NCBI RefSeq assembly: GCF_902652985.1 | Contig: NC_047025.1 | Coordinates: 17,608,001 to 17,672,000, forward strand | Direction: 5' to 3' | DNA: 64,000 bases | Source: Pecten maximus | Lineage: Eukaryota | Shown here: positions 1,809 through 7,800 of the stretch, piece after piece | Layout of the letters: every line of letters begins with the position of its first letter | Position numbering within the stretch: position 1 is the first letter of the stretch | Notes under the pieces: generated by a model | The model's database searches: none | What the model was told of the DNA's origin: nothing | Seen by the model: the letters and a program-made list of their open reading frames with translations, nothing else | Translations under genes and position numbers: made by a program

Positions 1809-4800
1809 ATGCCGGCGCAAAGTCGTGCACGAGTGTATGCTGATGTGAACATCCACAGACAAAGAGAGTACTGGGACTACGAGTCTCATGTAGTCGAGTG
1901 GGGGTAAGTGACCATACAGATGTAATACAGCAAATATTAACGCTACAAAGCATGGACATGTATTGTTTTATTGCAAGGAAACGAAACATTTTTGAGTAAT
2001 ATGCCCCCATGGGCGCCTCTTGTAGGCATCGCTTGAGTGTACGTCAGTAGACAACGCGATATGGAAAAAATGTTGTTCCACAAAGTTAAGATATTCTGAA
2101 CTCTTAAAATAGACGAATATTTTTGTTTGACTGCTTGCTGGTACATGTGAACGGTTTCCTCCCATAAGTCTACTACTTCATATGTACATCTTCCATACAG
2201 CGCACGTGTATAGATGGAGGGGTTATAATCGAGAGCAGATTGTTGTACGCGTGTGGGAGTATGTTTTCAAACAATGCCTAATTATTTAAAGCAGACAAGC
2301 GTTGAATGATATAGACCATTATTTTTGGCGACAGACATACAAAAACAATGATAAAATGATAAGTATTAAAATTATGCTAAGTGTGTATTTTTTCTTGTAA
2401 TTTTGATAATTGAATTTTGAAAACATTTTTTTTGTGTCATTTAAAATTTTCCCTATATGATATCCTTGACATGTCATTTGAAGAAAACTAAGTCTGAGAA
2501 TTGCGGTTGGACACGATAGACAGGTTGGGGAAAACTGCCACTAGTGTATTAAATGCAAACTTGCCTATATGTATGGATTTTTTTACTAAAAATTGCCCAA
2601 GTCAAAGGATATTTTACTGGAAGATGATTGAAAGTTCTGACGAGTTAGAAACTTTATTTTACTCTACTTGAAGTATTGCATCAACTTTTGATACTTTCCC
2701 GTGTGCAAATTAATTTACTATTCATTTGTATGATGTTTCATGACTAAATAAATTAAACTTAGACCAAAAAACAGATGGAAAATAGAGTTTAAAGTGATTA
2801 TTAGTAACAAACCCATATACCAATTGGCGTATAATAGGCAAGTTTGCGTATTATATACAAGATGGTGGTTTTTCACTGATAGACACATATTGTACATAGT
2901 CTATAGCTTCATATTAAGCAAGTTCATGCATGTGTATGAAAACTTAAAATTTTAACCATGCAAAAAAAAAAAATTGTTGTTTCTGAAAAACATATTCTGT
3001 TTTCAAATCTTATTCCAAGGCAAGCACTTACAAAAAAAAACCACAGTAATTTGAAGTGTTGTAATAATTAATTGCCATTTATGAAGTTAAGAATTGTTAT
3101 ATCCATAAATCTGTAACATACAGAAATGATTATAGGAAATTGTATATGAAACAATGTTGCATGTATGATTTTGATCTTTATTCTTTTGTTTGACATACCG
3201 TATATGATACACATGTACTTGTAATTACATTTCAGGCAACAAGATGACTACCAAATCGTCAGAAAGCTTGGCAGAGGAAAATACAGTGAAGTCTTTGAAG
3301 CAGTGAATATCACAAACAATGAGAAGTGTGTCATAAAAATTCTAAAGGTATACCTACATAAGGTTCAGATTGCTCAAATACCCATATTGATTGGTTTCTA
3401 ATTTTTATATAAGAATAACCCCAATTAACCTGTTGGCGGTCAACTATTTGTGGGGTCCTATTCAGAATTCGGAATTCTCTGATGAAGGGACTAGGAAGAA
3501 GATCTGTTGTATCCTCCCTGCATGTGACTGTCAGAGATAATTAACGACGTCATAGCCCTTGCACAATTGGCAGATAGGGGACCACTTGAGACCAAATTTA
3601 ATCTGCTGTCTTCGCAATAAACTTCATATCTTCATACTCTTTCTTTCTGTAATTTTCTTCTGTTGGTTTGCTTGGTTAAAGTAGACATCCCTTCTTGTAT
3701 AACACTGGCTGCTTTTGAAAGTGCAGATGGCTTAATCATTCTGTTTGTTCTATTTCATTTTGACTTAATTCTGTTCACTATTTTTACTAAAAAAAAGTTT
3801 TTTAATAGGGTTGCATATACACATGTTATGTTTGAATGAAATATTAATGTTCATTTGTGGAATATTTTGTTACAGCCTGTAAAAAAGAAGAAGATCAAAA
3901 GAGAAATAAAGATTCTTGAAAATCTGCGTGGAGGCACAAATGTCATTTCTCTCTTGGCTATAGTTAAAGACCCTGTGGTGAGTATAATAAACTTCAGACA
4001 CAGTACTTAAAACACACATTGACTTCAAGCTTTGTTTTTGTAGGAGTCCTGAAATGCAAGTCCACCACAAATGTCACACGCATGTGTCTGATGTGATCTA
4101 ACTTGCACATATCAACATGGAGACAAGTAGAATTTCTGTTTCATTTTGTGGCTCAGAAATATGGACAGTTCTTCAACATGGTTGCTAAATCCAGTGTTAT
4201 TTATAAATTCTATAATGCTTTTACTATTGAAGGGTCAGCTAATAGGGAGAATACTGTGGTTCATTAAAAAAAATTCAAAATTGGGAGAGTTCCTTTGCCA
4301 TTTGTTTCATCTTTCCCTGTCATGGAGGTGCATTCATGTGTATACAAAAACAGATTTGTTATACAGTGTGAAAACAGACCAGATCACTGATAATTGGAAA
4401 AGTAATTATTCACTGCACCTTAATAACTCCAATGTTATCTTTGTTCAACTTTTTTGCTGATTTGCTAGGTCAGAATTTTTCGATGTTCAAGTGAGTTGAA
4501 GTGAAAACATTAATTTCTGAAAATGTTTTAATTGAATAAAGTGGTAGATTGTTAACTCCTTCCGTACTCGTGACATCCTGAGACATCAAAAAAATGTGCT
4601 TCTGTATCCTTATGACGTTTTGAGACGATGCTCTAAACATGCCTTTCCTTTGTGATGTCTCAAGTGGTCATGAAACACGTTTGTGTAACTGGCCGGTTAA
4701 GCATTCGTATGTTGGAATTTATTTGCGAAATATGTATTTAACAAATAGTGAGTATTAAAAGTAAAATGATTGGTAATTTTATGAGTTTAAAGCATATTTA

Positions 4801-7800
4801 ATTGTTAAAATAAGCTAATGCTTAGAAAGTGGCTGGTTTATGCTGGGTTGTTTTCACTGACAAAAAAATGGCGGACTCAGATTTTACTGTCAGTTTCTAA
4901 GGCTAATTAAAGGAAAAAACACATTCAGTGACATGCAGAAAGAACCAAAAAATGTAGTGACTGAAATTTGAATGAGTGTAGAAATAGATAAACACATCGT
5001 TTTTGCAAGTCCACCACAGATGTCGCATGTATGTGTCGGATGTGATCTAACTTGCAGATATCAATGATGGAGACAAGTAGAATTTCTGTGTCATTTTGTA
5101 ACTCAGAAATATGGACAGATCTCCCACATAGTAGCAATACATGTAACTTATTTCCTGCCAGTCTAACATTAGAAAAACAATTCAGACACACTTGTACATA
5201 CTAATGAGACTTCATCCTTAGTCCTAGGTGAAAATGGCATTATCGCTTATTTACCCCTGGTTACTTGAGCTGTGTTGCCTACATTTCTTACCAACAAAAA
5301 AAACATTGGCTGAAAATACCAGTCATATATAAAGATGATTTTAAACAACACTTTGACCGAGTGTCCTAGGCTCGGTTATAACCGGAACAAGGACGTTAAG
5401 CCCCATCAATCAATCAACACTTTGATTAGACCAGATTTCCGCTCAGCTACCGGTGGAAACCAATCAAATTTGAGATGAATTATAAATTTGTGATGAATTA
5501 TTCATGTTATCACGTGCGATGTAGTCCCAGTACCCAGGTATAAATAAACGAAAGTGCGATTTTCACCTTGGGCCAAAGTTGCTGAAACTTGTTCTATTTA
5601 CAATTTAGTGATCATTTCAACTCTGAATTATTGTTCAACCCAACATCTACATGGCAATTGTCTTGCTCTGTAAGAATGTTTTGAAGCCTGAGTTGAGTGA
5701 ATTGAAGAAAAATAATAATTTATCTATATTCTATGAAATATTCCAGTCTGTTTGAAACAATTTATCTATAATTACAGAGTCTGGTTAAAACAATAGATAG
5801 ATTTTCAATTGCTGAAGTACTATATATGTTATCATTGCAAGTACACCACAAATGTCATATATGTATGTATCAGATGTGATCTAACTTGCAGATATCAATG
5901 ATGGAGACAAGTAGAATTTCTGTGATCTTGTGGCTCAGAAATATGGACAGATCTTCCACAAAGTTTGCATATATATTTTGAAAGTACATGTATATGAAAT
6001 GTTATTTTATACCTGATATAAACAACAGTTTCATAACGCTCATCTTGAGTCTTGAGCTATGTCAAAATGCTGCTGTAGTCGTAATTGCTAATGTGTTGAG
6101 AGTTACTGTTGTCATGATTATAGCATTGATGTGTTAATTTAGAAGACTCTCCCTTAGATCATGGGTTTGAATTGGAAATGCACATTGCAAGGAAAAGTAA
6201 TGAGGTATTCCCGAAGGGCATGATGTCTATTGTGTTTGTTTTTCCCACTTGACATGTCATGATTTAAAATGCTTTGAAATCATGAGGAAATTGATGAATT
6301 GAAAACATTGATTTATTATTAGTTATAGTTGGGCTAGTGGTTAGATTTTTCAAACATTTTAAGTTTAATTTGCACCCACTGCCTGAAAGGCATGCAAGAG
6401 ATGATTTTTTGATTGACTAAAAAAATCTCATTGTATGGTAACAGCGTAAGCATTGAGTTGAACTGAACATAAATCCTTAACAGCCCAATCAGATCTTCAT
6501 AACGTTATAATGATAAATTGGTTTGATTTCATTGTTGCAAGTCCACCACAAATGTCACACACATGTGTCGGATGTGATCTAACTTGCACATATCAAAATG
6601 GAAACAAGTAGAATTTCTATGTCATTTTATGGCTCAGAAATATGGACAGATTTCCCACATAATAATATACATATAACTGTCTAATAGAAAAACAACAAAA
6701 CTAAGATGGCTATGCACATTGCTAGCCAACAATGTATTTAGGTAACAAATTATAATCCGTTTTCAACACTTTTGATAGCCTGTTCATTTAGCACCCACTG
6801 CCGGAAAGGCAGGCAAGAGATGATTTAGTTATTGACATTTTGAACTGAATATTCATAACTTAGTTTATAATGATAAATGGGTTTTATTTCATTGTTGCAA
6901 GTCCACCACAAATGTCACATGCATGTGTCGGATGTGATCTAACTTGCACATATCAAAATGGAAACAAGTAGAATTTCTATGTCATTTTATGGCTCAGAAA
7001 TATGGACAGATTTCCCACATAATAATATACATATAACTGTCTAATAGAAAAACAGAGAGTCTTCTGACACTCTTGTATGTATACTCTAATCTGTTATTCT
7101 ACTTGACCTATGGACAATCAGTCAAACTGAAAATTTGACTGACAATGTATTAATATCTGCACATTGTAAATACATCATTGAAAGCACTGATGTTGATGCA
7201 GTATACCTTGATAGGATCTAAAAATAAATCTAGATTAAAGATTCCATGTCTTCTCTAGCTTTTTAACTTTTTTGAGCAGTGGTACTATGTTTCATGAATG
7301 AAAATGTTTCCTCTATTTCCAGTCAAGAACACCAGCCTTGATATTTGAGCATGTCAATAACACAGATTTTAAGGTAAGTGACAACAATGTTTTAAATTGT
7401 ACAAAAATAAATGAATAAATAGATCAATCATCATGTACATTGTATCTTGATGTAAATTTATATTTTTTGTTATAGTAATCATTCATTCCTTATTTTTCAG
7501 ACATTGTATCAAACTTTCACAGATTATGACATTAGGTTCTACTTATTTGAATTGCTAAAGGTAAGTTGTTCTGAGTTCCTCTTTAAAAATTATATGTTTA
7601 AAATTTGACAATAGTCTGTATCCTTAGTCTGCAAGTAATGCCATATGTTGTCTGCTATCAATAAATAAAACTATTTATTCCCCACGTAATATAGTGCATT
7701 TCACAGACCTGCACAAACAATCCTGTCAAAGTGATATATGTTAAAATAAAAGTGCAACAACAGTAATATGTAATGTTTGCACATAGTATCATATATTATA

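Follow-up and report, generated by a model that had tools for sequence, protein, structure and literature searches.

The window analysed here, a 64-kb stretch of Pecten maximus DNA (64,000 nt; NC_047025.1, positions 17,608,001 to 17,672,000), contains exons of the gene for CK2alpha. Between coding exons 3 and 4 of this gene lie five copies of a unit of 127-128 nt. We consider it likely that these are genes for a single small nucleolar RNA (snoRNA) of the box H/ACA class, which is co-transcribed with CK2alpha and is predicted to act as a guide for U2614 and U1653 of 28S ribosomal RNA (rRNA). The gene segments and the copies are as follows.

3876-3977, + strand: CK2alpha coding exon 3; protein match to human CK2alpha residues 72-105 (E about 1e-11)
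3978-7322, + strand: host intron, the third coding intron of CK2alpha; GT..AG, 3,345 nt, spliced out in RNA contigs
4055-4181, + strand: H/ACA snoRNA copy 1; H box ATATCA at 4109-4114, ACA at 4176-4178
5004-5131, + strand: H/ACA snoRNA copy 2; H box at 5058-5063, ACA at 5126-5128
5836-5963, + strand: H/ACA snoRNA copy 3; H box at 5892-5897, ACA at 5958-5960
6536-6662, + strand: H/ACA snoRNA copy 4; H box at 6590-6595, ACA at 6657-6659
6896-7022, + strand: H/ACA snoRNA copy 5; H box at 6950-6955, ACA at 7017-7019
7323-7373, + strand: CK2alpha coding exon 4

All copies are in sense orientation within a spliced intron of a transcribed host gene and together account for 19% of the intron length. 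Copy 1 starts 77 nt downstream of the 5′ splice site, and the ACA of copy 5 is found 303 nt upstream of the 3′ splice site. The joint between exons 3 and 4, across the whole intron, occurs in all four RNA or RNA-guessed runs (X6, X8, X19 and X20, from three studies), and for these same runs no further splice joint within the intron is listed. A scan for hidden exons returned one acceptor-like site only; the filter was crude and is failed by the majority of the real CK2alpha acceptors, which makes this result uninformative. Low-depth intronic contigs, including the spacer between copies 4 and 5, are present in two RNA-guessed runs at about 5-22% of the exon depth. The contigs of the total-RNA runs X19 and X20 do not cover the copies, and such absence from contigs is no evidence. 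In two RNA-guessed runs from different studies, intronic contigs end at 4330 and 4331, just inside the spacer after copy 1.

A DNA search of the 918-Mb genome, which skips very common words, gave five matches, all of them in the CK2alpha intron, and a covariance model detected no more copies in the window or in the 10 kb upstream of it. The first-pass annotation had named a dispersed high-copy repeat as one finding that would undo its snoRNA reading, and that case has thus failed. As contigs from other samples cover the spacer between copies 4 and 5 and reach into copy 5 (X4, 6665-6939; X6, 6562-6951), it is unlikely that these near-identical copies result from an assembly error. Further along CK2alpha, a 31-nt stretch at 11819-11849 repeats, with 90% identity, the beginning of the exon that follows (11893-11923) and lies within the intron preceding that exon.

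Architecture and conservation of the unit

The copies share 86-91% pairwise identity, except for copies 4 and 5, which are 98.4% identical. The order of elements is the same in all five: a lower stem, an internal loop and an upper stem-loop are followed by ATATCA, by a second such hairpin and by ACA. ATATCA is the H box (ANANNA) and occupies the hinge of each copy. The ACA follows hairpin 2 in each case and conservation stops right after it; the 3′ end of the RNA cannot be read from contigs. This anatomy, the location within one spliced intron and the rRNA target fits described below bear out the first-pass annotation, which had reported box H/ACA copies in a single intron of CK2alpha. A pattern combining guides and boxes has five matches in the window and none in each of 100 shuffles, which attests to recurrence only, as the pattern was derived from the copies. 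In a consensus fold of hairpin, hinge, hairpin and tail, 96% of the cells are paired, compared to 23-53% when the partners are slid.

Conservation is distributed unevenly over the unit. Only one of 28 columns varies in the guide strands and boxes (the guide columns having been delimited after the target scan), compared to 25 of 54 in the apical loops, the linker and the tail (Fisher p 4e-5). No variation is seen in the 12 columns of lower stem 1 or in the 18 of the upper-stem bases. In copy 3, a C>A change in the 5′ guide strand of hairpin 1 leaves nine of ten pairs. Purifying selection, as proposed earlier for the unit, is supported by this distribution. Within the species, one of the 21 intron substitutions listed falls inside the copies (p 0.07); this count is coverage-biased and is not used as support.

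Predicted target sites in 28S rRNA

Targets were searched among the 18S, 5.8S and 28S rRNAs and the U2 and U6 small nuclear RNAs (snRNAs) of the same genome, in which 1,412 uridines were scanned. Hairpin 1 forms 5+5 pairs, through CCACC and GAUCU, around the unpaired UU of 28S U1653-U1654, so that U1653 sits 14 nt from the H box with ten pairs (nine in copy 3). Hairpin 2 forms 6+6 pairs, through AGUAGA and GGACAG, around C2613-U2614-A2615 of 28S rRNA; U2614 sits 14 nt from the ACA, with 12-13 pairs and one mismatch. Both pockets agree with bipartite antisense of at least 8 pairs and a target uridine 13-16 nt from the box. An H/ACA pocket can work with as few as 8 pairs and may leave more than two nucleotides unpaired (PMC6049503; all papers are cited here for those parts of their text that were available).

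When sites were ranked by stacking energy, 28S U2614 was the best for hairpin 2 (-21.4, against -13.3 for the next site; copies 1-4), with 2 of 300 null sets as good. For hairpin 1 it was 28S U1653 (-18.9 against -12.7; copies 1-4), a fit equalled by 17 of 300 null sets. Among reverse-complement decoys, no score was better than -11.2. The copies are thus likely to represent one snoRNA, predicted from its pairing to guide 28S pseudouridines at one known site (U2614) and at one which we did not find listed (U1653).

The register of U2614 is fixed by three box C/D guides of this genome which are predicted for 28S C2611, three bases upstream. The 18 nt around U2614 are letter-identical to the yeast fragment that carries the snR9-dependent pseudouridine 2338 (PMC5062969), which is 2340 in the usual numbering (PMC5699541). 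The nearby 2′-O-methylcytidine (Cm) 2335 of yeast is human Cm3820 (PMC10281867), and the target of SNORA58 is human 28S U3823 (PMC6984369).

Other main targets would also be conceivable. Hairpin 2 might address U2616 instead of, or as a dual pocket besides, U2614, or it might address an snRNA, while hairpin 1 could be an orphan with a chance fit to rRNA. By pair count, U2616 (10.5-11.5) comes close to U2614 (11-12), and it lies 16 nt from the ACA; human H/ACA RNAs have been shown to include dual pockets, which form a pair of pseudouridines one nucleotide apart (PMC8763049). The hairpin-1 fit has a p of 0.06, and the scan was confined to 18S, 5.8S and 28S rRNA and to U2 and U6. However, U2614 is the conserved site, and the equivalent of U2616 is unmodified in the yeast fragment (PMC5062969). 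The CAB box (UGAG), which scaRNAs carry in a terminal loop, occurs in none of the five copies, and the guide columns of hairpin 1, which form a canonical 5+5 pocket, are nearly invariant. We regard a different main target as unlikely on balance and retain U2614 and U1653 as the predicted sites.

The base directly before U1653 is C1652, which corresponds to Cm2338 in human and Cm1437 in yeast. This cytidine is 2′-O-methylated in fly, human, yeast, Arabidopsis, frog and Dictyostelium (PMC11014333). Nothing on the equivalent of U1653 was found in the available main text of PMC8351944 and PMC12723226. In the scallop genome, the one SNORD24/U24 homologue found (locus L021, 1501-1569) has a D′ box guide for 28S A1664 and no rRNA antisense at its D box; it shows no guide for C1652. 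Judging from yeast U24, such a guide would presumably have been expected at that D box. Three genome pattern searches for a C/D RNA guiding C1652 gave 0, 16 and 13 hits, none with an upstream C box; they would miss a degenerate box or a mismatch and are weak negatives. Because both the SNORD24 homologue and the genome patterns are without a C1652 guide, a weak negative in itself, it can be speculated that the lineage lost Cm at C1652 and gained a pseudouridine at U1653. The gain would have come through a new pocket on an RNA that replaced SNORA58 and was amplified five-fold in CK2alpha. We have little confidence in such an exchange; U1653 itself is a candidate for a lineage-specific rRNA pseudouridine.

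Several results weigh against the identification of the copies as guides for these two sites. With a pair-count score that allows mismatches, neither fit is significant: of 150 null sets, 18% did as well as hairpin 1 and 13% as well as hairpin 2. Under this score U2614 is also equalled, in four of the five copies, by a site in U2 snRNA. The target p-values are optimistic, since the energy score was adopted only once the pair-count result was in hand and a looser first scan preceded the choice of pocket geometries. The hairpin-2 fit has a U-C mismatch beside the target, and a guide A of this hairpin could pair with U2614 itself; uridines paired with the guide are no longer modified (PMC6049503). 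A pseudouridine at the equivalent of U1653 is absent from the yeast rows, the tobacco comparison table and the Xenopus supplement, as far as these were available.

The points against the identification extend to the RNA itself. Covariation is thin. The only compensatory change turns a G-C pair into A-U in copies 4 and 5, probably through a single event, and the rest are G-U changes; the covariation score is reached by 40 of 500 shuffles. The covariation noted earlier in the basal stem comes down to these changes. Taken singly, the copies give weak folding z-scores (+0.2 to -1.9), and their antisense strand folds equally well; such unremarkable values are usual in H/ACA RNAs whose internal loops are large. 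The Rfam scan suggested by the first-pass annotation was run and gave no match in the window at the gathering score, and chance-level matches only at E up to 10, so that Rfam misses the unit. No RNA contig marks a discrete 128-nt species, though contigs cannot show RNA ends. Finally, a common cleavage signal was not found in the spacers, which contain hairpins with no motif in common.

The most sceptical explanation would be a non-functional local repeat or a mobile-element relic, with hairpins and boxes that arose by chance. The window is indeed rich in tandem repeats, and the missing Rfam match and the weak z-scores would be expected for a relic, as would the lack of an orthologue in pattern searches of metagenome contigs. 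In these searches, a strict pattern gave no match, and a looser one matched at least 120 loci. Among the 120 loci listed, 80 were scored with the model, with no credible match (best 24.7 bits); the fourth motif is present in one of the 120, and this locus reads as a plain inverted repeat. Runs of a second organism ('organism B') proved almost identical to the window and thus did not provide an outgroup. A relic is hard to reconcile with the restriction to five places in the genome, with conservation that tracks guide and box function rather than distance, and with two independent rRNA pockets at the canonical 14-nt spacing, one of them on a known pseudouridine. We consider it very improbable and continue with the snoRNA interpretation.

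Maturation and origin of the array

We propose that dyskerin, Nop10, Nhp2 and Gar1 would assemble on each copy within the nascent transcript. Splicing and debranching would be followed by exonuclease trimming up to the outer borders of copies 1 and 5. Release of the inner copies would take an endonuclease that cuts the spacers, a step that the H/ACA clusters of flies need as well. Debranching and exonuclease trimming constitute the maturation pathway of intronic snoRNAs (PMC11028025); with five copies per intron, the inner ones would need either a spacer cut or partial loading. Polycistronic snoRNA precursors are cut by Rnt1 in yeast (PMC10557570). For animal H/ACA clusters, no description of the processing route was found in the available text of PMC3089462 and PMC10557570. 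CK2 phosphorylates the snoRNP chaperone Nopp140 (PMC8336889), which is a possible reason for CK2alpha being the host.

Real H/ACA genes might also be expressed with no internal cut. Trimming from the outside would then give a snoRNA-ended long non-coding RNA (sno-lncRNA) of about 3 kb, similar to SLERT, or a ladder; alternatively, one copy would mature per transcript by protein loading. Mammalian introns with two snoRNAs can yield sno-lncRNAs (PMC11028025), and in the array neither a spacer motif in common nor a hidden splice joint was seen. The low-depth intronic contigs of the two RNA-guessed runs, including that of the copy 4-5 spacer, would suit such an RNA; however, at about 5-22% of the exon depth they fit ordinary pre-mRNA or DNA carry-over as well. 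Boxes and stems are kept in all five copies, the inner ones included, which fits the use of each, and the use of intronic H/ACA genes in clusters has been reported for flies (PMC3089462). We regard expression with no internal cut as rather unlikely and prefer spacer cleavage.

The history of the array can be traced in part from the spacers, which contain the following elements.

6363-6417, + strand: duplicated 55-nt flank upstream of copy 4; 85% identical to 6782-6836
6782-6836, + strand: duplicated 55-nt flank upstream of copy 5; partner of 6363-6417
5213-5581, no strand assigned: long inverted repeat within the spacer that separates copy 2 from copy 3; arms at 5213-5265 and 5529-5581, duplex -62 kcal/mol
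5360-5417, no strand assigned: 58-nt very high-copy dispersed repeat in the same spacer; ends in (TCAA)n, unrelated to the snoRNA

Copies 4 and 5 have about 85% identity in their upstream flank, two differences in the unit and none in the 32 nt after it. Among 20 flank comparisons, copy 2 proved similar to copies 4 and 5 in its decayed 3′ flank (p 0.004 and 0 of 500 shuffles). The spacers had earlier been called unrelated, which has to be corrected for the 3′ flank of copy 2 and for copies 4 and 5, which have both flanks in common. The copies are not followed by visible poly(A) tails. Because of the flank homology, the lack of poly(A) tails and a window full of tandem arrays, the array is likely to have grown by local tandem duplication at the DNA level, as far as can be read from the sequence. 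For copies 4 and 5, the pattern suggests a recent duplication or conversion (homogenisation) over an older duplication. Since three to four copies per guide are common in this genome, the number of five may reflect a duplication-prone genome. The earlier proposal of a dosage-amplified guide is upheld as to a guide under selection, and its dosage part is inference only.

The 55-nt flank forms a small G+C-rich hairpin and occurs at only two places in the genome; no function was found for it. A reading of this flank as a C/D snoRNA was dropped because no antisense to rRNA is present in it.

In the inverted repeat, a contig of run X18 (depth 2.5) differs at nine positions, all nine being A>G and all located within 5529-5577. 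The second arm holds 18 of the 67 A's of this contig, and the clustering has a p of about 1e-6. This looks like ADAR-type A-to-I hyper-editing of intron RNA, although only one contig shows it and its run is guessed to contain DNA. The 58-nt repeat at 5360-5417 reaches a summed contig depth of tens of thousands in DNA runs. Elsewhere in the window, minisatellite arrays are found at 18493-19412, 32400-33089, 37459-38785, 43799-44698, 50875-52259 and from 60543 onward, with periods of 30, 63, 35, 50, 155 and 33 nt.

Comparison with known systems

The closest functional counterparts are SNORA58 (ACA58, RF00418) and yeast snR9, as hairpin 2 is predicted on the same uridine (human U3823, Xenopus U2982, yeast 2338/2340). 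The host of SNORA58 in vertebrates is UBAP2L, in contrast to CK2alpha for the present copies. The RF00418 covariance model does not match at the copies with E up to 10, and on the genome it has no match among 41 candidates scored. The unit is thus predicted to work like SNORA58/snR9 at one pocket; membership in the family is not claimed, as no homology to the Rfam model was found. Hairpin 2 also resembles the dual-guide pockets of SNORA53 and SCARNA1 (PMC8763049), since it can likewise be drawn on U2614 or U2616, which is a prediction only.

No report of CK2 as an snoRNA host was found among the papers listed, judged by title and start of the abstract, and CSNK2A does not occur in the Xenopus snoRNA supplement. 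A description of the CK2alpha-intron unit was likewise not found in the mollusc snoRNA literature among the papers listed, for the parts available. We thus have an H/ACA family that is missed by Rfam and a host gene which we did not find reported.

Within the same genome, multiple copies of a guide recur. SNORA74 (U19)-like copies, which score below the Rfam gathering score, are found at 1963-2157, 4907-5101 and 5897-6091 of locus L022 (G000:C12, minus strand). Two of them share a CCT7 intron of 1,408 nt, and the third is located farther on in the gene, at a distance of about 3 kb. Human residues 90-131, 132-149 (by length) and 150-206 correspond to the flanking exons, which would leave no coding exon between the two copies in this gene model. 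In addition, a dense box C/D cluster (L164-L165, G000:C2:40734800-40748800) contains SNORD24, three copies of snR60, SNORD79 and others, several guides being present in 3-4 copies. Judged from these loci, a multi-copy intronic layout is not special in this animal.

The cluster described here is a real, unannotated H/ACA snoRNA cluster. It represents an ordinary kind of gene and its layout is known already. A cluster described in PMC1821038 was considered as a parallel and rejected, as it has one snoRNA per intron in the text available. Human SLERT likewise has more than one H/ACA snoRNA in one excised intron; however, these are two different snoRNAs brought together by exon skipping (PMC11028025), whereas CK2alpha carries five paralogues in a normally spliced intron. 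Intronic clusters of Drosophila likewise have several H/ACA genes per intron of a coding gene and so depart from the one-per-intron pattern (Huang et al. 2005, as cited in PMC3089462), in a different animal, host gene and RNA family. With a layout that is known from flies and recurs elsewhere in the genome, a specialist would not be very surprised by the array. Its five copies, which can be distinguished by sequence and are located in one proven intron, provide a clean natural substrate for the question of how animals release multiple snoRNAs from one intron.

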